The notes below the pieces were generated by a model, which saw only the letters and a list, made by a program, of their open reading frames with translations, ran no database searches and was not told the DNA's origin. From assembly GCA_951800145.1 (NCBI GenBank), contig CATOJE010000001.1:59234-123233 (forward strand): a stretch of 64,000 nucleotides of DNA, in the 5' to 3' direction. Below, in pieces: positions 8,839 through 25,743 of this stretch (positions are counted from its first letter, which is position 1; the number at the start of each line of letters is the position of its first letter). This stretch comes from an uncultured Lachnospiraceae bacterium. Its GTDB lineage: Bacteria; Bacillota; Clostridia; Lachnospirales; Lachnospiraceae. The position numbers were made by a program, and so were the translations under genes.

Positions 8839-9180
8839 TTACCTCTTACACTCTACCATATTTCTAATAGCTTCCTCCACAACAGCATTCAAACTCTTCT
8901 CATGTTCAATCGCGTATACCGCAATATTCCGATGAAGCTCCGGACTGATCCTGACATTAAATGTTCCCTTGTATGGTTGTTCGGGTTTCACGTTTCTTTC
9001 ATCGCAATCTGCTAAATATTCATCAATCACATTCTGAAAATCCTGCTCTAATTCCTGTACTGAATCACCTTCATAAGACAGTAAAGCTTTGATTCCGACC
9101 ACCTTTCCAAAAAGGCATTTATCTTCTTTAGAATATTCCACTGTGCCATTGTAATTCTTATATAACAACAAATTACTCAT
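8839..9180 (-). CDS. hicB: HicB-family antitoxin
   Basis: L.YK.Y.G.VEYS.ED..L.GKV, YKGTFNVRISPELH ribbon-helix-helix region. Confidence 0.9.
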   Translation of the reverse strand: MSNLLLYKNYNGTVEYSKEDKCLFGKVVGIKALLSYEGDSVQELEQDFQNVIDEYLADCDERNVKPEQPYKGTFNVRISPELHRNIAVYAIEHEKSLNAVVEEAIRNMVECKR

Positions 9181-9309
9181 GGTAAACTATCCTTTCTTAG
9201 ATTTCTCTAGATACCTGCTCTAACACATATCTCTCTATGACACCGCTTGGACATGGTTCGTTCCACCTTGTTTTAACTCATATCCAAAATATGATAACAA
9301 GAATTGCAT
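9177..9309 (-). pseudogene. hicA: hicA toxin remnant
   Basis: Fragments in three frames, MQFLLSYFGYELKQGGT / PCPSGVIERYVLEQV / LRKDSLP*, resemble HicA. Final TGA overlaps the hicB ATG. Confidence 0.7.
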
Positions 9310-9378
9310 TTCTACTTTGTATGTAATATACCACTCCGGGTTAAAATATGCAACTATCTATCGTTGCATGTCATGTTC

Positions 9379-10170
9379 TCAATCCACCAAAATCCTCCGT
9401 CCCCCCTTTTCTTCTCTCCCGGCGCTTCTTTCGCCCTGGGAAATCTCCTCGATCACCGCGCACATAGCCTGATACAGCTCTTCCCTCCGCCTTCCCGCCA
9501 GTCTTTTGCTTCTCCGTCTAAGATAGTCCTCCAGTATCCCCACCGGCACCACACCCGGGCTTAAAAGACAGGTATAGGCAAACATGCGGTCCTCCGGCTG
9601 CCCGCCCTCTGCCTTCAGGATACACTCTGCAAAATACCGGGTAATGTCCGGGGCCAGTCCCTGTCCGCCCACGCCGCCCCAGTCCGAATCGATCACATTC
9701 ACCGTATCATACACGGTTCCCATATCCGCGAAGCAGGTGTACTGGTCACGAAGCCGCGCCCCCTTCCGCAGGTGAAAGCGGCAGAGCTCGAATGACTGCT
9801 CCTTCTTCTTTTCCTCCCTCTTCTCAGAGGGTTCTAGGCAGAAATTCATCTCATAAGAAAGATAATCCGGGCAGCTCTCATCCAGCCGGATCCTAAGCCG
9901 CAAAACCTGCAGCTGATTAAGCGGCTCATAAAGGATCCGGGTCTCCTCTGGAAGAAGACAGATAAACCGGCCGCATTTCACCATTCCCGGGGCAATGAGC
10001 AGCGCGCCGTCCTCCACCCGGATGCCGCACCCCTGCAAAAATCCCTGCCCATACTCCTGATACTCCAGCTGAAGGTGGGAAAAAGCATAGTCCCGCAGTG
10101 ACCACAAAAGCTCTTTCTTTAGCACCCGCTTTCCCTCAAACAGCGGATACCGATTCTCCTGCTTCTCCAT
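9379..10170 (-). CDS. Conserved protein of the injection-like operon; N-terminus resembles baseplate/fibre-attachment domains
   Basis: PLFEGKRVLKKELL..LRDY...Y..YGQGFLQGCGI..DGALLIAPG pattern; no helicase motifs. Confidence 0.5.
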   Translation of the reverse strand: MEKQENRYPLFEGKRVLKKELLWSLRDYAFSHLQLEYQEYGQGFLQGCGIRVEDGALLIAPGMVKCGRFICLLPEETRILYEPLNQLQVLRLRIRLDESCPDYLSYEMNFCLEPSEKREEKKKEQSFELCRFHLRKGARLRDQYTCFADMGTVYDTVNVIDSDWGGVGGQGLAPDITRYFAECILKAEGGQPEDRMFAYTCLLSPGVVPVGILEDYLRRRSKRLAGRRREELYQAMCAVIEEISQGERSAGREEKGGRRILVD

Positions 10171-10197
10171 CCGTCTGCCTCCTCTCTCTGCGCAAAC

Positions 10198-12831
10198 CTA
10201 CTTCATCCCATCAAAAAAGTTCTGTGTCCACCCATCATGCTCAAAACAGAACCGCTCCTCCCGCCCCAGATACAGCCGCTTCTCCCGGCGATACAAAGGC
10301 ACCACGGAAAACTCCCAGTCCTCCCGCCTTGCCCAGACGAAAAACCTTACCTCCCGCTCCCCGATGTCATCGGTGTCCGCCTGGAGGATATGCTCTCCGT
10401 AAATCCCATATATGTCCTCATACCGCTTTTCCTCAAAATCCACCAGGCTGCTGCGGCAGGTATATTGATACCGCTCCCTTCCATCCACATCTTTTAAATA
10501 CAGCTTCAGGGTCAAGTCCTCCATATTTCGGGAGATCCTCCCGCTCTTAACATCCTTCTTCAGGCAGCGGATCAATACCCGCTCCTCCCCATGGTGGGTA
10601 TAGGCGGTAACCTGATACGGCAGCACCGGCTCCTCTGTTTGGATGTCCACATCGGCGAAGCCGTATTTCTTGTCCTTCAGGTAGGCCAGAGCGCCGTCCA
10701 CGCAGGTCATCTTCAGCTCCGCATCCCGGCTTATCCCCGGGACCTGTCTGGCAAACTGGATGGTGCGCCCCGGGACAAACTCCTTTAAGGCGTCCCGGAA
10801 CAGGCCGATCTTACAGGACTGTCCGGTCAGCCGGATGAGAGAATACTCCTCCAGCGTCCCCTCCTCGTACATCCTTCCCATAAACCGAAGAACCACCCCG
10901 TAAATATCGGCTTTCAGCAGCAGCTCTAATTCATAGATGCTGATAAAAACCGCCGGGAACTCCTTCACCAGCTCCAGGCCCCGGCCCTTATCCCTGCAGA
11001 CGGACAGCCGCCACGGATCCACCGGCAGCCAGGTGACCGCATTCTCTTCCACCTTCCGGGAGGATAATGCCACCCGCAACGTCCCCATCCGGTGATAAAA
11101 TTCCTTTTTCACCCGCTCCGCCAAGCGGAAGAGAAGGTAAAAGTTATTCTTCACCTGATAGTATTCCCGCCGGCCCTGGTGTTCAAATATAGAAAACTGG
11201 GTGGGAAGATACTCCTCCGCCTTCCGGTACTCCTCTTCCAATTCCCTGTAAATCGCCTCCGCCCCGTGCTGATCCACATAGCGGTACACATCCCGGTCAT
11301 ATCCGGCCAGCAGCTCCCCCTCCGGCTTCAGTGCCAAAGGGCAGATACGATTCACCACAGCGATCTTTAACAGCTGCAGGATCCGGTAGGTCAGGTTATT
11401 CCCGCCGAAATCCGTGTCCCCGTTTTCATAAGCCATATCCATCTCGATCCGGTAAGCCGTCTGCTTATCCCATACCCGGAAGCGGCAGGAGCAGAGATCC
11501 GTGGTCCCTCCCCCACAGTCCAGGATCAATGCCCGGTATTCCTCCCCTTCCTCCAGGCTCCCCCTTTCCACCATGCCGGATATGGTGTGGTACAGCACAG
11601 CGGCCCCTTCATCGATCCGATCCTTTTCCCCTGCTTGGTACTCTGGCAGGAGTTCCCCGAAAAGCTTCCCAAACCGCGCCTTCTGCTTCACCGGGCAGGA
11701 AATATGTACGGAATCCACCTGACATTTGAACCGGTTGGCCACCGCCTGGATCACATAGGTGAGATAAGCTTTCAGGATCTCCTTTCTGGAAACAAACTGC
11801 CTGCGCCCCTCCCGGTCCGTGATCTCCTCCTGCCGTTCCACATCTCCTATCCAGCGCTTGATGTCATAAAACACGCAAAAGCCCTCATCCAGATAGCTGG
11901 AATCCGCCAGGCGGATGGCATCATAACCAAATAAATACTCCGGCTCCCCCTCCGCCAGGCTGCGGACGCCAACTACACTGGGGAGAAGATTCGTTTCCTC
12001 CCAATGACCGGAGGAATCATAAAATACCGCATAATTAGCCTGATCCCGTTTCAGCCCCCGCTCCCCATCCTTCAGCCCGGACTGTTCAAAAAACTGGCCG
12101 TCCAGGAATACACTGGCCGTGGTATTCGAGGTTCCAAAGTCTATGGCCGCAGATAATGGCAGGGGCAAAGGCTTCCTTACCTGGAAATTCACCAAGGGGA
12201 TCCGGTAAACATCCAGGGACTGAGGAACCGCCTCACAGCTGCCCCGGTAAACCTGGTAGAGCAGATCCGATTCCCGCCGCCCCATACAGTACAGGCTGTA
12301 ATTCTTAATCTCCGACTCCCGGCAGGGCATCCCCGCCTCCATGGTCAGATACAGGCAGTCCCTCCTGCCGCCCATGGGAACCAGGTTCATGACTGCGCAT
12401 ACGCTCCCATCCCCGCCCAGGATAAGGGCATTGGTCCCTGCCAGCTCCCTCACATAAGGCAGCTTCAAGCCGTCATAAAATCCTACTGCCAGGCCTTCAT
12501 ACACCATGATTTTCGAGCTGCAGGCCAGAGACCGCTCCCTCCGCTCTGACAGGCGGCTCTCCCGAAATACCCGCTCCAACGCTTCCAGGCCCGCGTCATC
12601 CTTCTTTTGAATCAGGAAATATTCATCGGCTCCCCAGAACCGCAGGATGACCCGGATCAGTTCCTCTTGATCCATAGGGTTCACCACTCCCTGGATCAGC
12701 TTCTCCCGGCGGCAAATTTCCCGGAGCTGGAAGGTGGTCATCCCCAAAAGCTCCGCCTTGTGATATCGCCTTTCCTCTTTTTCCTCAGGTTCCATTGTCC
12801 TTTTCATCAAACGGTAGCCATATTTATCCAT
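10198..12831 (-). CDS. Hsp70/actin-fold ATPase (SrfB-like 'molecular chaperone')
   Basis: Phosphate-1 AIDFGTSNT, IDEGAA, phosphate-2 LDCGGGTTDL, FGGNNLT, LTGQS; 877 aa. Confidence 0.8.
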   Translation of the reverse strand: MDKYGYRLMKRTMEPEEKEERRYHKAELLGMTTFQLREICRREKLIQGVVNPMDQEELIRVILRFWGADEYFLIQKKDDAGLEALERVFRESRLSERRERSLACSSKIMVYEGLAVGFYDGLKLPYVRELAGTNALILGGDGSVCAVMNLVPMGGRRDCLYLTMEAGMPCRESEIKNYSLYCMGRRESDLLYQVYRGSCEAVPQSLDVYRIPLVNFQVRKPLPLPLSAAIDFGTSNTTASVFLDGQFFEQSGLKDGERGLKRDQANYAVFYDSSGHWEETNLLPSVVGVRSLAEGEPEYLFGYDAIRLADSSYLDEGFCVFYDIKRWIGDVERQEEITDREGRRQFVSRKEILKAYLTYVIQAVANRFKCQVDSVHISCPVKQKARFGKLFGELLPEYQAGEKDRIDEGAAVLYHTISGMVERGSLEEGEEYRALILDCGGGTTDLCSCRFRVWDKQTAYRIEMDMAYENGDTDFGGNNLTYRILQLLKIAVVNRICPLALKPEGELLAGYDRDVYRYVDQHGAEAIYRELEEEYRKAEEYLPTQFSIFEHQGRREYYQVKNNFYLLFRLAERVKKEFYHRMGTLRVALSSRKVEENAVTWLPVDPWRLSVCRDKGRGLELVKEFPAVFISIYELELLLKADIYGVVLRFMGRMYEEGTLEEYSLIRLTGQSCKIGLFRDALKEFVPGRTIQFARQVPGISRDAELKMTCVDGALAYLKDKKYGFADVDIQTEEPVLPYQVTAYTHHGEERVLIRCLKKDVKSGRISRNMEDLTLKLYLKDVDGRERYQYTCRSSLVDFEEKRYEDIYGIYGEHILQADTDDIGEREVRFFVWARREDWEFSVVPLYRREKRLYLGREERFCFEHDGWTQNFFDGMK

Positions 12832-12892
12832 GGTTTGCCTCCCATTCCTCTATATGTGCTCTCGGAATCTCTTTATGCCTGATTTTGTGAGA

Positions 12893-12977
12893 TGATTTTT
12901 TGTCAGATGTACACAAATTTAAGAGGCGTACGCGGAACGTACGTTGATTAAATTTGTGTACGTCTGGCGGAAAATCA
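12893..12977 (+). repeat. Long palindromic element (29-bp outer stem plus 8-bp inner stem)
   Basis: Arms 12894-12922 and 12948-12976; 4 mismatches, all G-T pairs on the plus strand. Confidence 0.85.
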
Positions 12978-13035
12978 GCCGCAAAAGTAATGAATATAGG
13001 CAGGAAAGTAATTTTTCTTTTCTCTAATAAAGTAT
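12978..13035 (-). pseudogene. Short N-terminal remnant of an immunity-like paralog (B')
   Basis: LLEKRK and YFPAYIHYFC match LLKKRK and YLPAYIQYKC of the 13787-14328 gene, with the TM segment deleted. Confidence 0.5.
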
Positions 13036-13653
13036 GTATCTTGGATCTGGCCATTGCTTTAAAAAATACCATCCTTCCCCTAACGAATTAAATTCATACA
13101 AATACATTTCATTTACATTTAAACTTAAAGGTACTTTGGGTGAATAAATAAACTTTAGTGACATATTTGCTGTGTCATAGTAATACAATTCAACAACAAT
13201 AATCTGCGATTTAGGCATTATACCAAAATTTCCCGCAAAATTTCCTGATACCGTAATTTCACATCCATCTTTTGGATAATTCCGGCTCTTGATTGATAAT
13301 CGTAAAAAATCCGTCAAGGGATTCTTTGATTCTATAATCTTCGATTGATTTAAATAGTCATCCCTTAAATAGTATATCGTCTCTATTCCAAATTTCTCTG
13401 CCGAAAACTCTACCGATTTAAAATCCCAGTTCTCTATACTTTGATAAAAGTCCTCTATCCTCCTAAATTTATCTCTATGCTTTAAAAATACGTCTTCCCA
13501 ATATTCTCCACTCAAAAAGGTTCTTTTTTCCGGCGGAAATATCATATGGCGATAGTGAAGGACATAAAATGAAAGGGAATAATATATAATAGTGGTTAAT
13601 ACTATAGAGGATAGAATTCCGCATAAATAGATAATAATATATCGTTTCTTCAC
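13024..13653 (-). CDS. Membrane-anchored hypothetical protein, immunity-like (paralog A)
   Basis: N-terminal TM, C-terminal FIYSP...LGEGWYF; AT-rich. Confidence 0.65.
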   Translation of the reverse strand: MKKRYIIIYLCGILSSIVLTTIIYYSLSFYVLHYRHMIFPPEKRTFLSGEYWEDVFLKHRDKFRRIEDFYQSIENWDFKSVEFSAEKFGIETIYYLRDDYLNQSKIIESKNPLTDFLRLSIKSRNYPKDGCEITVSGNFAGNFGIMPKSQIIVVELYYYDTANMSLKFIYSPKVPLSLNVNEMYLYEFNSLGEGWYFLKQWPDPRYILY

Positions 13654-13786
13654 AAGTGATTATCCTTTCGATATTGTTTATCTTTTATTTTAAAGAAATT
13701 TACCTCGTTACTTTATTACAATAACAACACCTTTTTATAATTTCCCTTTCAATTATCGCAATTTTTAAGTCATCATATACCATCAC

Positions 13787-14328
13787 TTATCCCCCGCTGG
13801 AAGTCTTTTTCAATTTGATTGGCTCATAATGATAAATTACAAAATACCAGTCATCTTCTAACTGCTCTGAATAAACAAAATTCTCTTCTTCGATTTGAAT
13901 TCCTGGAGCGTACAGAAAGGAAACAAGATCTTCCCCCTCCTGATATCGTCCTATATATCCAAATACCGCCCATCTATCCCATACAAGTCAATTTCGTCTA
14001 AGTCGCCGTGAATAAACACATCGATACCATATCTTTTCTCCGTTACAAAATCCCAGCTCCTGTCCTCCTGAAAAAACTTCTCCATCTCTTCAAATTCAAG
14101 ACGATTGTCAAAAAAATACGTTCGCATCCGCTCCGCATCGTGGTAGTGCGCTTCCTCTATTCTCCAGCACTTGTATTGAATATAGGCAGGGAGATAGGTA
14201 AACAGGAGAAAATGAGTGAGCGCTACCACCGGCAGCGTAAAAAATCCGGCCAGGAATATTATAATTGATTTTCTTTTCTTTAATAACATACGCATCTTGG
14301 ATCTGGTCATTGTTTTAAAAAATACCAT
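13787..14328 (-). pseudogene. Frameshifted membrane-anchored immunity-like protein (paralog B)
   Basis: ORF stops at 13951, but the +1 frame continues GGIWIYRT...FLYAPG...QLEDDWYFVIYH to TAA at 13787, the same C-terminal motif type as paralog A. Confidence 0.6.
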
Positions 14329-14410
14329 CCTTCCCCCAACGAATCAAATTCATACAAGTATATTTCACTTATATTTAAACTTAAAGGTGCTCTCCCCGGT
14401 ATCACAAAAC
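14269..14410 (-). pseudogene. 3' remnant of a second copy of paralog A (A')
   Basis: 14269-14388 aligns without gaps to 13013-13132 (about 13 mismatches in 120 nt by hand count); Trp codon changed to TGA. Confidence 0.75.
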
Positions 14411-14419
14411 CTAACTTTA

Positions 14420-16420
14420 TCACCATCTCAGCTTTTTACAGCTCTCGCTAATTCGTTCTTCAATCCGTCTATATTTCTTCGAAACCTCTGGCATATTAAT
14501 AATCCCTGAATAGTTAAGTGAGTTTTTAACTCCAAATAAAAGATGCATTACGATCATTGATTTACCAAATGCTGTTCGATATGACGGCAAATCGATAATT
14601 CCATTGGGTTTAAAAAATATTTTTTCTTCTTCCTCTCGCAAATAGTCGATATATTCTAATAAATCCAGAAAAATTTTATATTGCTCTCTTTGTATTAACA
14701 ATTCATAGCTTGATTGACGGCTATATGAATCCTCTCTTCCGTCATACTCACGCCAGGCGCATTCCCGGAGCATTTCAAGAAGGACACTGTCTCTTCTTAG
14801 CATTGCCATAAGTTCATATCCACGCGGCGACATGTAAAGCTTTGTCTCATTGCACAAAGAAGCTTCTGTATCTAATGTTTCAATATCATCTATATCTTCG
14901 ATGGATTTTCTCAATACTTTCTTTTCAAAAAGAAATACTAACGCGCGATAAAATTTTTCTTTACATTCATCATCAAAAATTGTAGACCAATGCTGGCAGA
15001 TCCGATCTAATCTTTGAGCATTTAAACCATATGTTACTTCCTGTGTTGCCTCTTCCTTTTGCTCATATTTAATAAAATATTTCATAACAAGCAAACAATA
15101 AATACTATAATCTTCATTTTCAGAAGATAAAAATATATTTGGAATAACTGAATCCTCTGTTCCAGTAAATACAGCCGAATTGTTACATCCTATCGAACGA
15201 ATAATATTTATATTGTTAAAAGTATATTCTCGCGAATTAACCGAAAAAAAAGCATCCTTTAAACGATTTCCCTGCACCCAAAATCGATTCGCAAATATTC
15301 GGGAATAAGTGGCCAGCGCTTCACGAATATTCATAAAGCACAAATTGAGGATCATATCTTTATATTTTCCTTCAAATGCATCGTTAAGATATTCCAATTC
15401 TCTATAGCAATCATCCCAAGAGTCCTTATTACCGATCTCTTTGTTAGAAGACTTTGTATAATAATCAAATCGCTTTTTGAAAAGTACACTTAAATCAATC
15501 GCGTTTTTCTTTAGAACCGTATTTGTCACGATTGAAAAAGCTTCCAATCTTCTCAATGTCGCGTTAAACTCACATTTTTGATATAGTCTTAATGTATGCG
15601 GACGAATAGAGATAAGCAAATTAATTCGGTATTCTGAATCATCAGGAAAATCTGTATTATTCATACATTCAAACAAATGCAAATATGCTTCAATTACTAA
15701 ATCTTGTTGCTTTTCCGGTAATGTTTCAACATCATCTAAAAGAATAACCAATCGGTCGTATGTAGAATATTTACATTTGATAAAATATTTCAATTTATTA
15801 GCAGCGTACTCAAATGGATGCTCCTTTTCCGCATATTTCAATTTAGCTTTTATTTCATCATCGTATGATAAATTCATAAGAGATAAATCATTCTTCATTT
15901 CAAGGATTCTTGGAGTATGCTTTCTTATAAATACATAAAATGATCTTCTGCCTTCTTCTGTCCGCACTACATCACGTAGTTCTGGATGAGCTTCTTCGAG
16001 TGTAGTACAAACTGCTGCAATACGCCCTTCAATGTCAAGAGATTCCGGTTCCTTTTTTCTGGCTCCATCAAAAAAAGTAGGAAAAACGACGATACATTTA
16101 TTTGGTGTTCTCTGCGATTGAGTCGTAAGACGTGAAACATTACTCACTCCAAGATTAAGGCAATGGCGGATGGACGTTGTTTTTCCTATTCCTGTATATC
16201 CCACACAAAATTTCATGGAATTTCGAATCGAATTCAAAAAGCTATTCAATGAATTTTCAAAATTTTCATCCGTTACATATAATTCTTCAAACGTCTTATC
16301 ATTGGTTGGCATTGGTTCTCCTATGAATAAGTTATCAAATTGATATTTGAATTTCCTGTAAATATCATTTTCTCCAACATCGCCTACGATCGTAACATGA
16401 TCACAAATTCTGTAACGCAT
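14420..16420 (-). CDS. P-loop NTPase (STAND/KAP/ORC-like), candidate conflict or defence protein
   Basis: Walker A GYTGIGKT, Walker B LVILLDDVE, LLISIR sensor; strongly AT-rich. Confidence 0.75.
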   Translation of the reverse strand: MRYRICDHVTIVGDVGENDIYRKFKYQFDNLFIGEPMPTNDKTFEELYVTDENFENSLNSFLNSIRNSMKFCVGYTGIGKTTSIRHCLNLGVSNVSRLTTQSQRTPNKCIVVFPTFFDGARKKEPESLDIEGRIAAVCTTLEEAHPELRDVVRTEEGRRSFYVFIRKHTPRILEMKNDLSLMNLSYDDEIKAKLKYAEKEHPFEYAANKLKYFIKCKYSTYDRLVILLDDVETLPEKQQDLVIEAYLHLFECMNNTDFPDDSEYRINLLISIRPHTLRLYQKCEFNATLRRLEAFSIVTNTVLKKNAIDLSVLFKKRFDYYTKSSNKEIGNKDSWDDCYRELEYLNDAFEGKYKDMILNLCFMNIREALATYSRIFANRFWVQGNRLKDAFFSVNSREYTFNNINIIRSIGCNNSAVFTGTEDSVIPNIFLSSENEDYSIYCLLVMKYFIKYEQKEEATQEVTYGLNAQRLDRICQHWSTIFDDECKEKFYRALVFLFEKKVLRKSIEDIDDIETLDTEASLCNETKLYMSPRGYELMAMLRRDSVLLEMLRECAWREYDGREDSYSRQSSYELLIQREQYKIFLDLLEYIDYLREEEEKIFFKPNGIIDLPSYRTAFGKSMIVMHLLFGVKNSLNYSGIINMPEVSKKYRRIEERISESCKKLRW

Positions 16421-16426
16421 TATACT

Positions 16427-17104
16427 TCATCCCCTTCTTCTATTTTTATCTATTTTAAATGATACCTGTCCTTCCACTAAATTAATTTGCATTAAATACT
16501 TTCCTGTATAGTTTTTCTCTTGAATGTCCTGAATGGAATAAGTGATTTTTTTCTCAAAAAACATACTGCCATCTGATGAATCATATAATATGAAATATAA
16601 ATTTTTCGATTCTCCAGGAGAAAGCCTCTGGCAAATCAGTTTATTTTCAATTTTACAGTTAGACGCAATGCTTTTCCCAATATTTTCCATTCTGGCATAT
16701 ATAATCCTATATCTGTCATTTTTTACTCCGATTTTAACTTTAGGATTTTCACTTATATGCTTATTTTTTCTTACCCCACTGATATTTTTCTCTTGGCAAG
16801 GTTCAATTAATATTTGTGGGATTTCACTCCTTTTTTCTATCACTAACTTAACGTATGAAGTTACTACCGCTGAAATAATGATATTCATTACTCCAGCAAC
16901 ATACGGAAGAAATCTCTTACATATAGAAACTGCAAAGTTGCTCTGAAATTGATTCATTAAAAGCTCTATTAAAGCTGGTTGAATATATTTAAATACAATC
17001 CATAACATAATAAAAAGCAATATAAATAACCCTATTAAAATACCATTCTGTATCAATCCTTCCCTTTTTTTATTTTCCATGATATAACCTTCTTTCTGGT
17101 GCAT
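16427..17104 (-). CDS. 2-TM hypothetical protein coupled to the NTPase
   Basis: Two N-terminal hydrophobic helices then a beta-rich domain; 6 nt from the NTPase start; likely start 17080. Confidence 0.65.
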   Translation of the reverse strand: MHQKEGYIMENKKREGLIQNGILIGLFILLFIMLWIVFKYIQPALIELLMNQFQSNFAVSICKRFLPYVAGVMNIIISAVVTSYVKLVIEKRSEIPQILIEPCQEKNISGVRKNKHISENPKVKIGVKNDRYRIIYARMENIGKSIASNCKIENKLICQRLSPGESKNLYFILYDSSDGSMFFEKKITYSIQDIQEKNYTGKYLMQINLVEGQVSFKIDKNRRRG

Positions 17105-17156
17105 TCTATCATTTTAATCTTTTCTTTATATCTATCCTCTTAGTAAAACCATTGCA

Positions 17157-17753
17157 TTAGAAATAAACTTTTTCTCCAGAGAATATCTCCAACACCTCTC
17201 CCATAAACTCCCCCACCCAGCACCGCTCCACCTGTTCCAGCCCCCGGATCTGCCGGATACGGGGAAATAATCCCTCCAGCATCGGCGCCAGCAGTCCCCG
17301 GGAAACCAGATAAAACTCCTCCCCCAGGGAATAAAGGAGCTTATCCAGCCTGCTGCCCTCCACCCGGGTCTGACGGGCAAATTCCCGGGTCAGCTTCTCC
17401 CGAAGCTCCCGAAAGCAGGATGATACCAGAAGAAAATCCCACCCACATCCACATTCCATCGGTGAGCTCCGTCCCCTCTCATCATAAAGATCCACCCGAT
17501 AGGGCAGCACTTCCAGCAATGTGGAGGTCCGCAGGTACGAGACCGCCAGATACATGGCCGGCCCGGCAGCCTGTCCGGACTCCAGCTGACGGTAATGCTC
17601 TGCCGCTGATTCCAGGCAGCATAGAAAGGAGCTCTCTGTATCTGGGCGCCGCAGCTCATACTCCCTGAAAATCTTCTCCCTGGCACTCGCCAGCTCTTCC
17701 CAGGCCAGGCGATCCATCTCCTGGAGGAACTTCTTTGCCAGCTTGTCTTCCAT
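17157..17753 (-). CDS. Conserved hypothetical protein of the injection-like operon
   Basis: SYLRTS...YRVDLYD...EC..W and VGEFMG motifs, recalled from N-termini of pentapeptide-repeat proteins in similar loci. Confidence 0.55.
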   Translation of the reverse strand: MEDKLAKKFLQEMDRLAWEELASAREKIFREYELRRPDTESSFLCCLESAAEHYRQLESGQAAGPAMYLAVSYLRTSTLLEVLPYRVDLYDERGRSSPMECGCGWDFLLVSSCFRELREKLTREFARQTRVEGSRLDKLLYSLGEEFYLVSRGLLAPMLEGLFPRIRQIRGLEQVERCWVGEFMGEVLEIFSGEKVYF

Positions 17754-17765
17754 ACTTCTCTCCCC

Positions 17766-18295
17766 CTAACCTTTCACCGGAAGCAGCTCCAGCTTAAAAT
17801 CCATGATTCCCCGCCGCAGCAGGCTTTCCGCCACATCCAGCCGGATCACCACGATCCGGTTCTCAGTCCCTCCAACCCGGAAAATACCGGCATCCCCGAT
17901 GGCCTCCCGATCCAGAACACACTTCTCCACCCGATTACCCCAGCGGTTCCACTGACTCTCTGAAGAAAGGCAGGAAATCCGCTGGAAAATCGGCGCGTAG
18001 TAAATGCAGTATGCATCCTTCTGGTTATGGATCAGAAACAATTCCTTAAACCGGAGCAGAGGATCGTAAAGGGAAAAACCTCCTTCATCTCCTCCCGAAC
18101 CAGATAAATCTGCTGTTCCAGGACACTAGGAAAGTCGCAGTCCTGATCCGAAGAGATAAAGGCCGGATTATGATCTGGAATCCGCCGGCCGCCCTCTATG
18201 TACAGATCTTCTTCCCGCCTGATGATATCCCGCAGGTTGCGGATATAGGGCAGATGGCGGTATCGGTTATCCTGTGTTAAACGAAAATACTCCAT
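17766..18295 (-). pseudogene. Imm11/DUF1629-like adaptor, split by a -1 frameshift
   Basis: Adding one T to the T5 run at about 18074-18078 gives KEVFSLYDPLLRFKELFLIH and joins the two ORFs; C-terminus VIRLDVAESLLRR. Confidence 0.7.
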
Positions 18296-18858
18296 TACAT
18301 CCCCCAAAGCAGTATCCTTACCGTAATTACCTTAATCAGTTGATGCAGCATAAAATTGAAAACGGCAAAGAATATAACCATCGGTACACTGCAGCCTCCC
18401 AGCCTTCATAATTCTGCCTGCGTCTGAAAGTCCTTCTCTTTCTCTTTGCACTGATAGCTGTCCATCAGTCCCTTGAGCCGCCTCCAATAAATTTTATCGG
18501 CAAAAAATCCCATCATCGGGAAATAAATCAACGCATATAAAACCACACAGACGATTTGCATAAAGTAATATGATCTAGGCCCCATTTCATATAAATATTG
18601 TACCGATACCACGATTGGTATAATCTCCAAACATACATATTCGATCACCGCCAATATAATTGCTTCTACCACCATGATTCGGTAGATCAGCCAATAGGGC
18701 CCGCAGAGGGCTGCGGCTAAATTATATGCTTTCCGCTTATCCTCAATTAAGGCAAAACGGCGTAAATAATCCTTCTCCTTGCCCAGACAGCAAATGATGT
18801 CCGATACACGGTATCCACCGATTTTTCTCTCTTCTCTTTTGCTTTCTTCCTTTTCCAT
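18295..18858 (-). pseudogene. DUF2628-like membrane protein with a premature stop
   Basis: YNLAAALCGPYWLIYR motif. In-frame readthrough of TGA at 18406 gives RLGGCS plus a TM, ending TAA at 18295 overlapping the next ATG. Confidence 0.7.
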
Positions 18859-18861
18859 GCT

Positions 18862-20088
18862 TCATTCCTCCTGTTCAAGTTTTTCAGCAAGCTGTTCCTG
18901 CAGCCACTGCATATAGTCTGGATCATCTCTCATGTATTCTATATTCGTATATGCGTCCAAAGTCGTTCTAGCATCAAGGTCTTCAAACCTCCATTCCCAA
19001 AAACCTTGTTTAAAAGTATCCAACGCCTTTTCCACCAGTTCCTCCGCTGTAGCAAAATCATCTTGGTTATAATATATTTCTCCCAGTTTTAAATTGATAA
19101 GCGCAGTTCTCGCCAGATTCAGCACCCCGCTCTCTAATAATCTATCGAGACACTGGATTGCCTCGTCATACCTTTTCTCCCGGGTCAGAAGTGTCCCTTT
19201 ATCCATATATGCCTTTATAGAATCGCTGTCAGCTTCTGATAAATATCCCTCTGCTTCCTGAATCCATTTCTCATTGTATTCCAGAGCGAGCGGGTAATCA
19301 CCCTTTCGGTAATAGCTCCCCGTCAATCCCCGATAGACAAAAATATCCACTGCCCGGTACTGATGCAGCTCTTGATTCAACTGGAAAATCTGGTTATAAC
19401 ATTGGATCCGTTCATCTTCATCTCCACAGTAAGAAAGAGCCATATAGCTGTATAGCCCTGCAATATCATTTTTCCCTAACAGCCTTCTTTCGTCCTCTAA
19501 TAATTGATTTACTTCATCAACTAACATTTGTTCCCGATTATCATCGTATACATTTACAAACGGACCATAACACAATCGGTTTGCGCGGATAATCAAGGCC
19601 TGTATTGGATCCGTTACTTTTTTCAATACATGATCATACTTTAATGTAGCCTCATCATATAAGATGCCCTCCAGCTCCATCAAGCGGGTGCTTCCCAAAT
19701 TGTTTACAATGCAAACATCCACAGAATCACTTCTTGATGAAATCAATGCATCGTTTAAGATTTCCTTGGCTTCCTCGCATCGATCCAGCCGCAAGTACCC
19801 CACGCCGATTGCATTCATGACTTCGGGAGTTTGATCCATAGCAGACAGCTGCTCTATCCCGTCCATCACCGATGCCTCGTCCCCCTTTAATAATTGGATC
19901 GCTTCCAGATATCCCGGGTTTCCATCATCCTCGCACAAGATTAAAATACTATGTAAATCTGCCACATAATAAGTATTGTCCATCTGTAAATTTTCAGGGC
20001 TTTCCGGCGATGCTTTCTCACACCCGCTAAGGAGATACAGCGCTATAAAGAGAATGCTGATACTTTTGAAAAACCTTGATTTCTTCAT
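18862..20088 (-). CDS. TPR-repeat lipoprotein
   Basis: Lipobox LLSGC; TPR patterns (NAIGVGYL, YYRKGDYPLALEY, LGEIYYNQDDFATAEELVEKAL). Confidence 0.8.
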   Translation of the reverse strand: MKKSRFFKSISILFIALYLLSGCEKASPESPENLQMDNTYYVADLHSILILCEDDGNPGYLEAIQLLKGDEASVMDGIEQLSAMDQTPEVMNAIGVGYLRLDRCEEAKEILNDALISSRSDSVDVCIVNNLGSTRLMELEGILYDEATLKYDHVLKKVTDPIQALIIRANRLCYGPFVNVYDDNREQMLVDEVNQLLEDERRLLGKNDIAGLYSYMALSYCGDEDERIQCYNQIFQLNQELHQYRAVDIFVYRGLTGSYYRKGDYPLALEYNEKWIQEAEGYLSEADSDSIKAYMDKGTLLTREKRYDEAIQCLDRLLESGVLNLARTALINLKLGEIYYNQDDFATAEELVEKALDTFKQGFWEWRFEDLDARTTLDAYTNIEYMRDDPDYMQWLQEQLAEKLEQEE

Positions 20089-20163
20089 GTCTCTCCCTTA
20101 TAAATACTATACATATAGTGGTTTCTACTCTCATAAAAGTAAGACAGCTTTAGGTTTGTAAAC

Positions 20164-20850
20164 CTACCGTTTCCCTTCCTGTATAGTCTGGATCACCTGA
20201 TGCATAATCGGCTCCCAGTCCTCCCGTTCCTCACCATAGCAATTACACATACACAGAATCAGCTGCTGCTTCCGTCCCATAAGGGCCAGCAAGTTAAATA
20301 CCGGTTCATCCAATGTATCATTTCGGAAGGAGAACCACTCCCCGCAGCCCTCTTCCACAGAATAGCTCCCTGTATCCAGGATCTCCGCGTCCTGGCGCAG
20401 CTTCTTTATCAGTGCCCGGTATCGGATTAACGTTCCCTTAAGCTGTTCCTGGCTTGCCCTCTGCCGGAATGCGCTGAAGGTGAAGTTCACCCGGTTCTCT
20501 TCATCTGCAAAGATCCGCTGAGGCCGGTTCTCAGAGGGGTATTTCCTCTTTGCCTGTTCCTGCTCCAGGGCGGTGAAGCCTGTGGGAAGGCGGATCCAGA
20601 CAGGCTCCAGCGTCTTCTCTCCCGAAAACAGCTCCACCTCCTGGAATTCGATCCGCCTCGCTCCTGCGTACATGCCTGTATAAGTATCCGTAAAGCCTTT
20701 CTTCTTCTCCTCCATTCGCTCCCGGATAATGATTTCATCAAAATACTGTTTCACCATGCACCTCCCTGCGCGAATCACCGCACAAACATTCTCCACGTTC
20801 TCTGCACTTTCTATATTTTTTGCATTTTTTACATTTTCTTCATATTCCAT
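20164..20850 (-). CDS. DcrB/DUF1795 (PsbP-like) putative effector adaptor
   Basis: IRLPTGF...KYPSENRPQ.IF...VNFTFS and C-terminal CNC...W..IM..VI; directly after the VgrG fragment. Confidence 0.55.
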   Translation of the reverse strand: MEYEENVKNAKNIESAENVENVCAVIRAGRCMVKQYFDEIIIRERMEEKKKGFTDTYTGMYAGARRIEFQEVELFSGEKTLEPVWIRLPTGFTALEQEQAKRKYPSENRPQRIFADEENRVNFTFSAFRQRASQEQLKGTLIRYRALIKKLRQDAEILDTGSYSVEEGCGEWFSFRNDTLDEPVFNLLALMGRKQQLILCMCNCYGEEREDWEPIMHQVIQTIQEGKR

Positions 20851-20900
20851 GTTTTCTGTATTTTCCGCATTTCCTGCATTCCTGCATTTCCCGCATTCCC
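20785..20900 (-). repeat. Degenerate 9-nt tandem repeats (GRAAATGCA-like)
   Basis: GGAAATGCA/GGAATGCA/GAAAATGTA/AAAAATGCA units spanning the intergenic region and encoding ENVKNAKNIESAENVENV. Confidence 0.6.
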
Positions 20901-20909
20901 ATTTTGATC

Positions 20910-21527
20910 CTATTTAAACTGGATATCCAGCCCGTTCTGCCGGATTCCATCCTGGAGCATCAGCATGGTTTCATTTTCCTGCAGGGTGATTCCATTTTCA
21001 CCCTCCACCAGGATCGGGCCCTGGCTGGTGAGGGAAATGCCGTCTGACGCGGTCAGGGATATCTGCTTTTTGCTTTTTATGGTGATTCCCTTCCGGTCAT
21101 CCAGCAGGATCCACATCCCCTTATGGTTCGTGATCCGGATTTGATTCGGCGTGAACCGCACTTCCTTATCGTAAATCGTCCGGATGGATTTCTCCTCCGG
21201 ATTTTTCCGCTTCTCATCCACCACCCCCAGATGCACCGCGCTGGAGACGTATCCATGATCCTCCGTCTCATCCGGAAAATACAGCCTCACCTGATCCCCC
21301 TCCTCCGGCATGCAGTACCAGCCAGTTCCGTCCGGGGAGGAGTATACTGTCGCATAGGCGTATTCCTTGCTGCAGGCACCGGGGATGTCCTCACAATCCA
21401 TCCGGATCCGAACCTTATCCTGCTTCACCGACTTCACCTTCCCCATAAGAGAACAGCCAATCAGACGGTCATTCTCATAGGGTTCCTGGTAAAAGCCCTC
21501 CTCCCTGCGCAGGGTATAGTGGCCCAT
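20910..21527 (-). pseudogene. VgrG/gp5 (baseplate spike) C-terminal fragment: OB-fold plus beta-helix
   Basis: GKVKSV..DKVRI...YATVYSSPDGTGWYCMPEEGDQVRLYFP OB-fold signature, then beta-strand repeats (I.L.A..GISL.S); gp27-like N-terminus absent. Confidence 0.75.
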
Positions 21528-21541
21528 AAGCGCACCCCCGG

Positions 21542-22801
21542 TCAGACAGATTTTGCGTTTCCCCGGAACCGCTCTCTGGTCAGCTTCATCTTGCTGTACT
21601 GGTCTAAGGACACATCGGGCACCACCGCATACCAGACTGTATTGCCAAAGTCGTTCTTTGCATTAGTGGTGTTTAAGTAGGTAACCAGACGGGAGAAGTT
21701 TGAGGTCTTTGCCAGTGTTTCATTGGATACATTGGTGATCAGCATGGACGGCCGCATACCTTTAAGCTTTTTGGGATACTGCTCAAAATAGCACCAGATG
21801 CCTAATAATTTTTCGATTAAGGGCTTTACTGTCTTGATAAATGCATCCTTGGATTCCCGGTAAAATTCCAGGTAGGAATTATAGTTGGCAACCTCCTGCT
21901 CCTGGTCGATGGTGCCCTCCATGGTGGAGGTCAGGGGGCAGAAGGTCCGGGCCACCAGGGCTGCCACATAGTCATTCCCCTCTTCGTTAATGGCGTTATA
22001 ATCCTCCTTCAGCGCTTCGATCAGGCCGAAGTTTACATGATCATCTACCGTGGCAAGGGCGGTGCTCTCCACCTTGGGCGCCTCTAATACTCTCAGCTCT
22101 CCCCCGTCTCCCATGCTCAGGACTCCTAAGGCTAAGGGAGTGTGATCCTTTTGATTCCCCCCGTCCCCCAGCAAGAGCCGGGTTTTAATATCCTCGATGG
22201 CCAGAGGCAGCATGGCCATCACATTATTATAATTGGCGCTGGCCTCCTCAAACATTACATTCAGCTTATCTGCCAGATCCAGCTTCTTCGGGTCGCCTTC
22301 CTCCAGCTTGGCGTATTCTCCATAGGTATACTGCAGCTCCTTCCGGTTCTGCTTGATGGAATCCATCACCTTTTTCGGGGAAATCATGTCTGTCAGCTTT
22401 TCGAACTTAAAGTCAACATTGATCATCCCCTCCGCCCGCTTGGTATCCACCATATTCATCAGCATTCCCATGAACTCATTCTGACGGTTTAAGGGGATCT
22501 CCGTCAGCATCTCCTCCGGCACCTGCTCCGGCTTCTCCAGCTGGTAAACTACCTTTTGGTTGTTGGCATTATAATAGCAGTAAACCGTGGGGCCAAACTT
22601 TTCCAGCACCTCATCGAAGCTGCGCACCAGCAGATGGTCGTTAATCTCCTTAATCTTATCATCAGACAGGCTTTCCACACCCCGGACATCTCCTACCAGA
22701 GTCACCAAGTCCATCTTCTCCGGATTGATTACCTCCATCAGCATGGTCCGGTTCGTCTGCTTAATCACATTTCCCATATGAATGCTCCGCCTTTTGTACA
22801 C
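21542..22801 (-). CDS. Large conserved protein of the injection-like operon, probably C-terminally truncated
   Basis: Likely start MGNVIKQ at 22777 with RBS; ends abruptly at RERFRGNAKSV* where the VgrG frame begins; no HTH seen. Confidence 0.55.
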   Translation of the reverse strand: MYKRRSIHMGNVIKQTNRTMLMEVINPEKMDLVTLVGDVRGVESLSDDKIKEINDHLLVRSFDEVLEKFGPTVYCYYNANNQKVVYQLEKPEQVPEEMLTEIPLNRQNEFMGMLMNMVDTKRAEGMINVDFKFEKLTDMISPKKVMDSIKQNRKELQYTYGEYAKLEEGDPKKLDLADKLNVMFEEASANYNNVMAMLPLAIEDIKTRLLLGDGGNQKDHTPLALGVLSMGDGGELRVLEAPKVESTALATVDDHVNFGLIEALKEDYNAINEEGNDYVAALVARTFCPLTSTMEGTIDQEQEVANYNSYLEFYRESKDAFIKTVKPLIEKLLGIWCYFEQYPKKLKGMRPSMLITNVSNETLAKTSNFSRLVTYLNTTNAKNDFGNTVWYAVVPDVSLDQYSKMKLTRERFRGNAKSV

Positions 22802-22810
22802 GTTATCCTT

Positions 22811-24625
22811 TTAAAGCCCCTGCTTTTCACTGGGTTTTAAGCTTTCATAGTGAATTTCCATCTCTGTCTCTCCATCTGCGAAGGAAATAGTGAGCTTCCC
22901 ATGATAATAAACCGGATATTCCAGCCCCTTTTTCACGATCTCCATTCCCCGCATCACAGTGCAGCCCTCTGACTGGTCCACGATCATCAGGGCGTGATCG
23001 GATCCAGGATAGAAAAGGATATGCTCCCCTCCAGCCTGCCCAAGGTTAATGCCACAGTCCTCCAGGATCTGCTTCAGTGTCAGGCTTCCTGACGAATGTC
23101 CGAACAGACGATAGGTCTGAGGCGGAATATCCCTGCCTCCGGGGGTCCGCACAGCATACAACATCAGCTTGCCGGAAAAGGGCTCTGCCTTTGGATTTAT
23201 TTTTTGTTCTGTCCTGCCAGGCATACGGCTCTTTTTCCGAAACCAAATCAGAAGCAGTACAAAAAGAGACAGAAAAAGCCCGCACAGAATCCCCAGAAAG
23301 GGACGATAGTCAATCACCGGCACAAAAACCGGATCCGAAGGCTTCTCAATCTGAATCCTGACCGGCTGCTGCAGCTCATAGATCTCTTCGGTTTCCTCCA
23401 GCTCTACCGTTACCTCCAGCTCATCCACAGAATCGACCGGTAAGGTCTGCCTCAGCTGGCCCTGCTGTATCTGACCGGAATAAGGGATTCCATTAATGGT
23501 ATAATGCATCTCCCTGCCTTCAAACCTATCCTGTCCCCACAGATTCTCTTGCTCCTCTGTGACTGTGACAAGCTGGATAGCGGCCTCTGCATAATGCTTA
23601 TAGACCGGCGGAATATTCTTTTTCACCTCTTCCTCTGACCGCGGAAGCTCTTCTGACCAGCAGCTTACTGTCACCTTGGGCGCCGCCACATACTGGGAGA
23701 TCCTGTAGGCCTCTACATCCGCCGCCTCCTCTGTCTCATAGCTGATAAAAAGCTCCCCGGGAGGGGGAGAATCCAGCTCCAAAATCAGGAACCGCTCCCC
23801 GGTTATCCGCTCCTCCCTCCCACCGGGAGTCCGAACCGATACCTCCTTTAGCTCCTTGCTCCCGGTAAGCACCAGCTTCAGGTGGCTTAATCCTGGCAAA
23901 ATCTCCTGGCGGATTTCCCCTCTGCCAGCTGCTTTATCATGGATCCCGGTGAGAACCTGGTGCGGGATCCGCATCCTCTCCTTCACGATGCGGTTCATAA
24001 TCTGGGAGACAGAGCCGGACTGGCCCTCCCAGTAGATAGCGCCATCGGTTATCTCCGCTCCGTCAAAGATATGGAGCCGTCCGCCTGCAGACGCTTCCCC
24101 GATGGCTACGATGTAGATGGGAATCCCCTTCTCCTTCGCCAGACCGGCCGCCTCTTCATAGCGTCTGCGGGACTCCTCCCGTCTCTCCTCGTCTGGCATA
24201 TCGATCTCGCCGTCAGTGAGCATCACAATATATCGCCCACTCACCTCCGGATCCGTGGAGAAAAGCGCAACCGCCTGATAAAGCCCATCTCCTGCATTCG
24301 TGTAGCCTGTATAGGAAATCCCCTCCAGCTGCGCTTCCAGCTCCTCTCTTCCCGCCCCTATGGGTGCCACCGCCTGGAGCTCCGTATTATAAGCCACCAG
24401 ACCGATTTGATCCCTGGGGGGCAGGCCATACATGGTTTGGCGCAGTGCATCCATAACCATATGATCCTTGTCATAGTGATTCATGGATACACTGGTGTCC
24501 AGTAAAAAGACAATCTCATTTCCTTTATGCGGATCGCCATCGCTGTCTGCTAAGGCCGTCCAGGCTGTATTCAAGATGAGGAAAAGTGTGATCCCCAATG
24601 CCAGCATCCTCTTGTGATGTTTCAT
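22811..24625 (-). CDS. Secreted, membrane-anchored VWA-domain protein with cytoplasmic C-terminal domain
   Basis: Signal peptide, MIDAS FLLDTSVSM, YTNAG, MLTDGE, C-terminal TM FLGILCGLFLSLFVLLLIWF. Confidence 0.85.
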   Translation of the reverse strand: MKHHKRMLALGITLFLILNTAWTALADSDGDPHKGNEIVFLLDTSVSMNHYDKDHMVMDALRQTMYGLPPRDQIGLVAYNTELQAVAPIGAGREELEAQLEGISYTGYTNAGDGLYQAVALFSTDPEVSGRYIVMLTDGEIDMPDEERREESRRRYEEAAGLAKEKGIPIYIVAIGEASAGGRLHIFDGAEITDGAIYWEGQSGSVSQIMNRIVKERMRIPHQVLTGIHDKAAGRGEIRQEILPGLSHLKLVLTGSKELKEVSVRTPGGREERITGERFLILELDSPPPGELFISYETEEAADVEAYRISQYVAAPKVTVSCWSEELPRSEEEVKKNIPPVYKHYAEAAIQLVTVTEEQENLWGQDRFEGREMHYTINGIPYSGQIQQGQLRQTLPVDSVDELEVTVELEETEEIYELQQPVRIQIEKPSDPVFVPVIDYRPFLGILCGLFLSLFVLLLIWFRKKSRMPGRTEQKINPKAEPFSGKLMLYAVRTPGGRDIPPQTYRLFGHSSGSLTLKQILEDCGINLGQAGGEHILFYPGSDHALMIVDQSEGCTVMRGMEIVKKGLEYPVYYHGKLTISFADGETEMEIHYESLKPSEKQGL

Positions 24626-24855: not shown

Positions 24856-25446
24856 TCATATGTGAATTTTTCTTTTTTTATTTTTTATGACCCCGGCACA
24901 TAATAGTACGGCTACTGCCAAATGTCCTAATGCAGCAGCCAGGCTAATCTCCCTGGCGCCGATCCCATAGCACAGGAGCCAGAGGATGACTTCGATTCCC
25001 CATATACTCCTGCTTCGCTTCTGGTAGCGGATCCGTTCCTTCTGGTCAAATGGCTTATTCGGATCCTCCACCGGAGCCAGAAGGAAGATGCAGAGCCCGC
25101 ATAATCCGCTGGCAAGGAAGTCCGCCGCCAGCACGGCTCCTTCCGGAATTCGCTTTTCTATGATGCAGACTATACAGAGCATGGATGCAGATACCACTGT
25201 ACAGGTATTAAAGTTATCCGCGTGGTGCCCGCCCGCGTAGGAGCGCAGGGGGATAAAGAAGGCTAAAAAGACAGGGACGGTGATATATGCCCGGAATATG
25301 ACAGCCAAAAGACAGGCGATCAAAAGATTGACCACCTGTCCGATGAGCAGCTCATAGGCGTATTGGTATAATTTTTGCTCTTCCGATGACAGATAGCTCC
25401 GCTTCACCTGCCACGTCACAAAATAGTTCGCCAGCTTCTCAATCAT
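24856..25446 (-). CDS. agrB: AgrB autoinducer-processing membrane peptidase
   Basis: PLRSYAGGHHADNFNTC catalytic His/Cys motif; APVEDPNKP. Confidence 0.93.
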   Translation of the reverse strand: MIEKLANYFVTWQVKRSYLSSEEQKLYQYAYELLIGQVVNLLIACLLAVIFRAYITVPVFLAFFIPLRSYAGGHHADNFNTCTVVSASMLCIVCIIEKRIPEGAVLAADFLASGLCGLCIFLLAPVEDPNKPFDQKERIRYQKRSRSIWGIEVILWLLCYGIGAREISLAAALGHLAVAVLLCAGVIKNKKRKIHI

Positions 25447-25458
25447 GGTATCTTAACT

Positions 25459-25632: not shown

Positions 25633-25676
25633 AATTGTAGTACCTCCTGCTGCTTCTTGGTTTAATATTTACGTTT

Positions 25677-25743
25677 ACCATACATATCTATTTTCCAAAA
25701 ATCAAGGTACTTTCCGAATTTTGTCCTTTTCTTCCGTTTTTTG
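25677..25743 (-). promoter_or_regulatory. Putative AgrA-activated agrDB promoter
   Basis: CAAAAAACGGAA (25732-25743) and CAAAATTCGGAA (25712-25723), 20-bp period; 6 nt; TTGATT-17-TATGGT; overlaps the agrC 3' end. Confidence 0.7.

Follow-up and report, generated by a model that had tools for sequence, protein, structure and literature searches.

The window analysed here, 64,000 nucleotides of contig CATOJE010000001.1 from an uncultured Lachnospiraceae bacterium, carries between positions 24625 and 9379 a block of minus-strand genes that runs from a VWA-domain membrane protein, through fragments of a putative contractile sheath gene and of a vgrG spike gene, to an Hsp70-like ATPase and a 263-amino-acid (aa) protein (Table 1). 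All open reading frames (ORFs) of an initial annotation, which had read the operon as a membrane-anchored injection system, were located on this strand at the positions and in the order given there. Our comparisons indicate that the block is what a deletion has left of a gene cluster whose intact form, found in relatives, is probably a Bacillota contractile injector, launching antibacterial toxins from within the cell as a type VI secretion system (T6SS) does.

The broken state of this copy can be read directly from the DNA. Two ORFs that had been taken as whole genes, the 419-aa "large unknown" protein and a 205-aa ORF, together make up a deletion junction, one on each side of it. The former is only the N-terminal half of a ~735-aa protein encoded by a genome of the same genus (90% identity), ending at about residue 408 of the homologue model described below, and the latter corresponds to residues 235 to 450 of a 450-aa VgrG (76% identity) that has an N-terminal Phage_GPD domain. 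Similarity to the sheath DNA stops at ~21552 and similarity to vgrG begins at ~21560 in another frame; the two genes are joined by an out-of-frame deletion at ~21552. Misassembly as the cause was ruled out because contigs of runs X4, X8, X3 and X6 bridge the junction (X3 is possibly the source of this assembly, and each of the others stems from a separate study), and contigs of X12 and X13, from related organisms, depart from the window at exactly 21552. The gp27-like hub half of VgrG is lost and the spike half retained. The VgrG/gp5 fold first assigned to the 205-aa ORF stands, with a family match above the cut-off, but for the C-terminal half of a VgrG only. In the 86%-complete genome of the window, profiles made from relatives detected no tube, DUF4280, 430-aa, 237-aa or FHA genes, a DUF4280 family search of that genome, made without any positive control, was likewise empty, and the J-protein and PP2C profiles each found one other gene, on other contigs. 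In two relatives (L008 and L009) the ATPase gene also directly precedes the 263-aa gene, as it does in the window, and therefore one deletion may lie behind all of the gene losses. Because the sheath is cut, the VgrG hub half is lost and the tube and PAAR-like genes are missing, no machine can be built from this locus; the working injection system proposed at first is likely dead in this strain, where a decaying operon with orphan immunity-type genes remains. A rearranged, broken sheath gene was also seen in G478, and decay thus occurs outside this window as well.

A scan with the full-length sheath protein returned 76 loci, nearly all from Lachnospiraceae, in which the intact order is a VWA protein with a transmembrane (TM) segment, the ~720-aa sheath protein, two 142-aa proteins, a J-protein, an FHA protein with a TM segment, a second FHA protein, a PP2C protein, a PP2C-TPR protein, the ATPase, and the 430-aa, 237-aa and 263-aa proteins. 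Among the 65 loci with at least 9.5 kb downstream, which are mostly from Lachnospiraceae and count as kin rather than as independent cases, J-protein, FHA and PP2C genes occur in 64 and the ATPase gene in 63, while the lower counts for the 430-aa (54), 237-aa (49), 263-aa (36) and VgrG (9) genes probably result from the 10-kb flank limit and from inserted spike genes. Across 400 genomes of the phylum, the sheath and ATPase profiles match the same 10. We read nine of these distant loci, through an ORF filter that hides some short genes and in stretches that in some cases end early, and found the sheath, ATPase, 430-aa, 237-aa and 263-aa genes together in all nine, with a tube gene listed in eight, VgrG in six, DUF4280 in six and a J-protein in five. 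The expectation that these genes co-occur is borne out by both results. Within the family, 17 of 300 genomes matched the sheath (one match is weak and one gene broken), and six of the 17 genomes of the window's genus have the ATPase; cultured Lacrimispora strains are among the carriers, and the cultured organisms whose locus is intact include Lacrimispora amygdalina DSM 12857 and [Clostridium] aerotolerans DSM 5434. Some genomes (G676, G015 and L085/L086) have two copies of the cluster. In G005, of the same genus, a WXG100-like cluster of the type VII secretion system type, with kinases and zinc-ribbon membrane proteins, adjoins the intact locus (L005 7829-19956 and L006); it was identified from ORF starts only.

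The ~720-aa protein is predicted to be a single-chain contractile sheath that resembles TssB and TssC in one chain. An AlphaFold model of a 722-aa full-length homologue, folded with a 115-sequence alignment (pLDDT 86.3, pTM 0.86), has nine Foldseek matches at E<=0.001, eight of which are T6SS sheath entries (best E 6.3e-5), and in VIA ranks 1 to 27 are all sheath proteins (Z 20.7 to 10.5), the next, unrelated rows reaching at most 8.1. The top VIA match is the sheath of cyanophage A-1(L) (Z 20.7, root mean square deviation [rmsd] 3.5, 305 residues aligned), and a Pseudomonas aeruginosa T6SS chain aligns with model residues 290-707 (Z 16.5, rmsd 5.6, 342 aligned). We infer the TssB-plus-TssC arrangement because the T6SS large chains match the C-terminal part only and a low-confidence linker (residues 208-242) divides the model; one chain covers the whole sheath fold, and the separate TssB and TssC of subtypes i and iii are not present. 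Pfam gave no meaningful match for the sheath, ATPase, 430-aa, 237-aa or 263-aa proteins, NCBIfam none for the window's sheath half, ATPase or 263-aa protein, and PHROGs none for any core protein, and therefore detection by known families would miss the cluster. PDB-sequence profile searches with the sheath, 430-aa, 237-aa and 263-aa proteins gave chance matches only, and a profile comparison with single Escherichia coli T6SS proteins was uninformative because its positive controls, sheath with TssC and tube with Hcp, failed as well.

Two 142-aa genes follow the sheath gene in all 65 loci, and the sole Pfam family that their products match is TssD (PF17642; best E 3.2e-5, 24.2 bits for a cut-off of 25.8); in the PDB, the tube profile has its top match in an Hcp1 structure (E 0.3). 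For the 430-aa and 237-aa proteins, mutual binding is predicted (ipSAE 0.64 versus 0.00 for the best control, contacts agreeing to at least 89%, partner pLDDT at least 73; in calibration, 116 of 157 solved pairs and 2 of 215 mismatched pairs attained the ipSAE mark). It is this predicted binding, and not their folds, that suggests a baseplate wedge in the role of TssF and TssG. The 263-aa protein is a candidate link at the baseplate periphery; PDB and PHROG searches found no meaningful match for it, and its nearest named clusters in the ESM Atlas (DUF4815, DUF6519 and Caudo_bapla_N) reach only 0.78-0.79, too little to bear out the label "baseplate-like" that it had been given. The Atlas offered no named family for the 430-aa protein. 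Relatives have Phage_GPD, Phage_base_V and DUF4280 matches above the cut-offs, and their spike regions near the cluster contain VgrGs of the Phage_GPD and oligonucleotide-binding (OB) fold type, DUF4280, pentapeptide and Imm11-like genes, and Rhs/nuclease-immunity arrays. The cargo includes Rhs repeats with DUF6531, Ntox44, AHH nuclease, a Tse3-like muramidase, and VgrG-AHH and DUF4280-AHH fusions, and the immunity genes include Imm48 and YezG. Thus the sheath, tube and PAAR-like genes that the initial annotation suggested looking for have counterparts in intact loci, as a predicted sheath fold, TssD-like tube candidates and DUF4280. In the effector region of one locus (L100 13534-16389, genome G099), a 951-aa ORF has a weak intein/HINT-type match (E 3.5e-4); domains of this type occur in self-cleaving polymorphic toxins.

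The 877-aa protein, intact in the window, consists of an N-terminal stretch of ~220 aa without a known domain, an Hsp70 nucleotide-binding domain and a beta-rich C-terminal domain. Structure prediction agrees with the Hsp70/actin-fold assignment made from the sequence, and the protein is predicted to be an Hsp70-type ATPase: its AlphaFold model (pLDDT 83) matches DnaK in Foldseek (E 1e-19) and reaches Z 26.7 in VIA (rmsd 2.8, 350 aligned). The best structural matches are Hsp70 and Hsp110, with one alignment reaching into the substrate-binding region; actin-fold filament and scaffold proteins match too (Z 15-21). D231, K325 and D438 are present in 42 of 42 sequences, E408 in 41 and T443 in 40; we take D231, K325, E408, D438 and T443 to correspond to D8, K70, E171, D194 and T199 of DnaK. 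All 46 clustered J-proteins have the HPD motif. A second, weakly Hsp70-like gene of 994 aa (L097 4595-7579 in G435; PF00012 E 0.005) is the immediate upstream neighbour of the most divergent, minimal locus.

The VWA protein has an N-terminal hydrophobic segment, a vWA domain, one later TM segment near residue 440 and a conserved cytoplasmic tail, in agreement with its description as a VWA-domain membrane protein. A profile of the tail matches an FHA structure only at E 0.63 and found nothing in five carriers lacking an adjoining VWA gene, in a search without a positive control. While 64 of the 65 mostly Lachnospiraceae loci have the gene upstream of that for the sheath, only two of the nine distant ones do; four of the seven distant loci without it have a Ser/Thr kinase in the cluster, and in G232 and G361 the kinase gene stands upstream of the sheath gene, where VWA otherwise sits. 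The anchor function first suggested for the VWA protein is therefore doubtful. We regard it as a candidate accessory sensor or anchor, and since it is optional and a kinase can take its position, a role in sensing is no less likely. The proposed adaptation to a monoderm envelope does not appear specific either, as LpxC is encoded by four of five carriers tested (suspected diderms were in part the reason for their choice), and Cetobacterium and Fusobacteriaceae are the named sources of a distant sheath homologue.

In the mechanism that these genes and models suggest, a VgrG-DUF4280 spike with antibacterial toxins would sit on a baseplate of the 430-aa, 237-aa and 263-aa proteins, TssD-like rings would polymerise within the single-chain sheath, and contraction of the sheath would push the spike out. 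DcrB-like, Imm11-like and pentapeptide proteins may load Rhs or nuclease toxins onto the spike, and FHA, PP2C and kinase or VWA proteins may govern firing through threonine phosphorylation. Because ClpV is absent, the Hsp70-like ATPase and the J-protein of the cluster are natural candidates for remodelling or recycling the sheath in its place. Contact-dependent firing from a living cell is favoured over release by lysis because of the immunity arrays, the VgrG-toxin fusions and the FHA, PP2C and kinase genes. The core of the injection-system proposal, apart from the putative membrane anchoring, thus holds for the family, on the evidence of the predicted sheath fold, the TssD-like tubes and the co-occurrence of the genes. 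In all likelihood the cluster represents a T6SS-like subtype that has not been described and that is inactive in this strain. The more specific proposal of an undescribed T6SS subtype of Bacillota and Fusobacteriaceae, firing across monoderm or diderm envelopes with one TssBC-like chain and with recycling by the Hsp70-like ATPase and J-protein instead of ClpV, is tentative and in its entirety doubtful.

Among the accessory genes of the window, the putative DcrB-like chaperone has homologues that adjoin vgrG genes, as would fit the original assignment, but its likeness to DcrB is weak (family profile against DcrB structures, E 0.45 and 0.72; Pfam DcrB matched by one of 13 homologues, E 0.098). 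The TPR and DUF2628 labels are backed by Pfam families. The TPR lipoprotein-like protein is likely an orphan immunity protein, and a 47% identical homologue in L009 follows a DUF4280-fused 731-aa gene; for the DUF2628 protein no homologue was found among the related loci fetched. The Imm11-like label is supported through homologues (best PF07791 E 3e-9) for a gene that is split in the window, and a contig of run X4 has a one-base indel at the split. The 198-aa protein has no Pfam match; by profile matches in six loci, one of which also matches the pentapeptide-gene profile, it appears related to the N-terminal part of pentapeptide-type genes beside vgrG and PAAR-like genes. In the variable block between 13.0 and 17.1 kb, GC is ~0.32 (0.50-0.56 in the core), and the ORFs comprise a 225-aa membrane ORF, a P-loop NTPase of 666 aa and a pair of paralogous membrane ORFs, in part decayed, that are joined by a 123-bp direct repeat (13013-13135 and 14269-14391). 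The AT-rich NTPase gene (14420-16420) has 151 mostly unnamed homologues, none of them in any related locus fetched, is not recognisable as a toxin and is possibly an unrelated defence-type gene inserted there; PADLOC found no match in the block. A ~125-bp, partly palindromic element at 12854-12980 within the operon, with copies on at least eight other contigs (25 blastn matches) and very high contig depth in metagenomes, resembles REP (repetitive extragenic palindromic) elements or MITEs (miniature inverted-repeat transposable elements). Downstream of the operon lies a variable 3' boundary, where 176 bp (9194-9371) are replaced by 4,556 other bases in run X4, and a HicB-like gene is found at 8839-9180. 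Upstream, here and in many relatives, are genes for an AgrB-like protein, a GHKL histidine kinase and a response regulator (24856-27905), whose families have 24, 26 and 37 cluster members among the 76 loci; their position suggests quorum-sensing control of the operon. Promoter and terminator scans stayed at chance level. Homologue names include Enterocloster, Lacrimispora and Hungatella, and the stretch is present in mouse-gut runs; both suggest a gut bacterium of Lachnospiraceae type.

Table 1. Features of the broken contractile-injection operon and their positions in the window.
Feature	Position	Strand	Basis
VWA membrane protein, 604 aa	22811..24625	-	Pfam VWA E 6e-14; hydropathy; tail alignment
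Truncated contractile-sheath gene (predicted), first ~416 codons of a ~720-735-aa chain	21542..22801	-	Homologue comparison
Out-of-frame deletion junction, sheath/vgrG	21545..21560	.	DNA similarity breakpoints; bridging contigs
C-terminal half of VgrG (gp5 OB fold and short beta-helix)	20910..21527	-	PF04717 E 4e-6
DcrB/DUF1795-like effector chaperone candidate	20164..20850	-	vgrG-adjoining homologues; weak DcrB matches
TPR lipoprotein-like protein, likely orphan immunity	18862..20088	-	TPR families
DUF2628 membrane protein	18406..18858	-	PF10947 E 4e-6
Imm11/DUF1629-like adaptor gene in two frames (18032-18307, 17766-18041)	17766..18307	-	Three-frame translation
Conserved 198-aa protein	17157..17753	-	Profile matches in 6 loci
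AT-rich variable block, GC 0.29-0.40	13013..17104	-	ORFs, Pfam, repeats
Intact 877-aa Hsp70-like ATPase (predicted)	10198..12831	-	AlphaFold, Foldseek, VIA
Intact 263-aa core protein, candidate baseplate periphery (TssK-shoulder-like)	9379..10170	-	Present in 9/9 distant loci

Several findings weigh against reading the intact cluster as a cell-bound, T6SS-like injector. No membrane complex and no universal membrane anchor were identified, and searches with positive controls, each in five genomes (for TssF one of them the window's own), found no TssM (PF14331), TssL (PF09850), TssK (PF05936), gp25/TssE or TssF (PF05947) and no ClpV (TIGR03345) above the cut-off, although the TssF, TssK and ClpV families may miss remote homologues; nor did the clusters read contain a Clp gene. 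The earlier statement that TssJLM and ClpV are lacking is in keeping with this for TssL, TssM and ClpV, while TssJ was not searched for. TssN was not found in the five carriers, in a search without a positive control, and TssO, TssP, TssQ and TssR were not searched for. The searches gave no fold for the 430-aa, 237-aa and 263-aa proteins, the TssD and DcrB matches fall under curated cut-offs, and Foldseek and VIA differ on the nearest kin of the sheath, with VIA placing phage, pyocin and extracellular contractile injection system (eCIS) sheaths (Z 18-20.7) above T6SS TssC (Z 16.5-17.0). In the most divergent complete locus, G435, the core is not accompanied by genes for a J-protein, FHA, PP2C or VWA protein, and these genes are therefore not obligatory; the ATPase of this locus has no adjoining J-protein, and the ATPase gene is generally placed among the baseplate candidates. 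As to the window itself, genes missing from an 86%-complete genome could lie in unassembled DNA, although the break in the sheath is direct. Some of these points would suit a released or cytoplasmic contractile particle, acting like an eCIS, a tailocin or the contractile injection system (CIS) of Streptomyces rather than like a cell-anchored T6SS. A single-chain sheath and two tube paralogues, both found in the cluster, are eCIS-like traits, and the first ranks of eCIS, pyocin and phage sheaths in VIA and the lack of a universal anchor point the same way. We nevertheless consider such a particle distinctly unlikely: no holin, endolysin or other lysis family, tape-measure, tail-terminator, tail-fibre or Afp15-type AAA+ ATPase was found among the selected locus ORFs scanned with Pfam (which could miss remote homologues), the tube resembles the TssD of T6SS subtype iii, and the traits of T6SSs include Rhs and VgrG-fused toxins accompanied by immunity arrays and by FHA/PP2C/kinase control. 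PVC systems never have a toxin fused to VgrG, according to the available part of PMC3482391.

A cell-bound injector could also use its ATPase differently, as a structural or assembly part (linking baseplate and membrane, or as a chaperone of sheath assembly), with the recycling of sheaths left to housekeeping Clp proteins or not taking place; this departs from our preferred reading in the ATPase step only and is a serious possibility, if one that falls short of being the probable case. The gene usually lies wedged among the 430-aa, 237-aa and 263-aa genes, its fold is shared with filament and scaffold proteins, the ATPase of G435 does without an adjoining J-protein, and ClpB/C homologues are encoded by all five carriers tested, whereas the nearly invariant catalytic-type residues, the dedicated HPD J-protein in 64 of 65 loci and the Hsp70/Hsp110 matches, one of them extending into the substrate-binding region, speak against this, so that recycling and a structural role appear about evenly balanced. 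For the window's own copy, we think it unlikely that it is useful as it stands, as an immunity and adaptor island guarding against neighbours with an intact system: the genes for the TPR lipoprotein, the DUF2628 protein and a 209-aa product are intact, as are the ATPase and 263-aa genes, and contigs of four other runs (X3 possibly being the source of the assembly) hold the same deleted form, but nearby ORFs are frameshifted or decayed and no cognate toxins were matched to the genes. That the cluster is the remnant of a contractile-tailed prophage is very improbable, for although the sheath fold is common to myophages, the sheath matches none of 50,697 phage and none of 72,556 plasmid records, which leaves a phage or plasmid origin unsupported, core proteins have no meaningful PHROG match, the locus listings contain no capsid, terminase or integrase, and the regulatory and toxin-immunity context is conserved.

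Among known machines, the intact cluster is probably T6SS-like in action but without the defining features of subtypes i or iii. Subtype iii of Bacteroidota combines a TssD tube, a DUF4280 tip and a TssNQOPR membrane complex, as described in the available parts of PMC10781749 and PMC13402684, and the vWA domain of its membrane-complex protein TssR (PMC10781749, available part) provides a precedent for the VWA protein of the cluster. With this subtype the cluster shares a TssD-like tube, DUF4280 tips, a short VgrG and, as far as TssL and TssM go, the lack of TssJLM; it differs in its one-chain sheath (TssB and TssC in subtype iii), in having no ClpV at the cut-off and no TssK or gp25 match, in a core with an Hsp70-like ATPase and J-protein, and in its hosts, which are monoderm and diderm Bacillota. 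Subtype i of Proteobacteria has 13 core genes and Fha/PpkA/PppA control. Here the similarities are a sheath C-terminal part closest to VipB/TssC by Foldseek, accessory genes of the Rhs, DUF1795/DcrB-like, Imm11-like and pentapeptide kinds, and FHA, PP2C and Ser/Thr kinase genes, whereas TssF, TssK, TssL, TssM, TssE and ClpV were not detected and the sheath and wedge candidates have no sequence-level similarity to their counterparts. Subtype iv (Amoebophilus) and the haloarchaeal T6SS also have a single-chain sheath and no TssJLM and, by the available part of PMC11566945, act cell-bound without a canonical membrane complex, as the cluster may do; unlike the cluster, they are placed there in the eCIS clade with recognisable gp25 and baseplate genes, and they differ from it in that it has a TssD-like tube and gp25 was undetected. 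With eCIS, PVC, Afp, R-pyocin, diffocin and the Streptomyces CIS, the cluster has in common a sheath fold in one chain (VIA Z 14-19), a pair of tube paralogues and a VgrG-like hub and spike, but polymorphic Rhs/nuclease-immunity arrays and putative phosphorylation control set it apart from them.

Parts of this system have been noticed before. Lays et al. 2016 (PMC5349215) speculated about a phage-like but unknown system for translocation in Gram-positive bacteria, and the same speculation is found in the available part of Zhang et al. 2021 (PMC8651086). As far as the accessible portions of these papers go, DUF4280 (PAAR_H2) lies beside VgrG of the Phage_GPD type in Firmicutes that lack recognisable T6SS or eCIS genes; they saw the tip and spike only, and the present analysis adds the sheath, tube, ATPase and wedge candidates. 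A 2023 review lists four T6SS subtypes, none of them in Bacillota in its available part (PMC10433429). No description of the cluster was found in full-text literature, although subscription papers or the supplements of PMC8651086 and PMC3482391 could hold one.

While the window's own broken copy matters mainly as a pointer to the intact cluster, the cluster itself bears on competition among gut anaerobes. T6SSs have been treated as Gram-negative machines, and if our reading is true, the cluster is a candidate for the missing Gram-positive T6SS; to the question of what delivers the DUF4280 tips and VgrG-like genes of Firmicutes, raised in the available parts of PMC5349215 and PMC8651086, it offers candidate sheath, tube, wedge, ATPase and control genes. 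Its occurrence in 17 of 300 genomes of the family and 10 of 400 of the phylum, cultured Lacrimispora strains included, makes the question directly testable. Moreover, an Hsp70/J-protein pair working on a contractile sheath, if true, would add a new mode of maintenance for machines of this kind.

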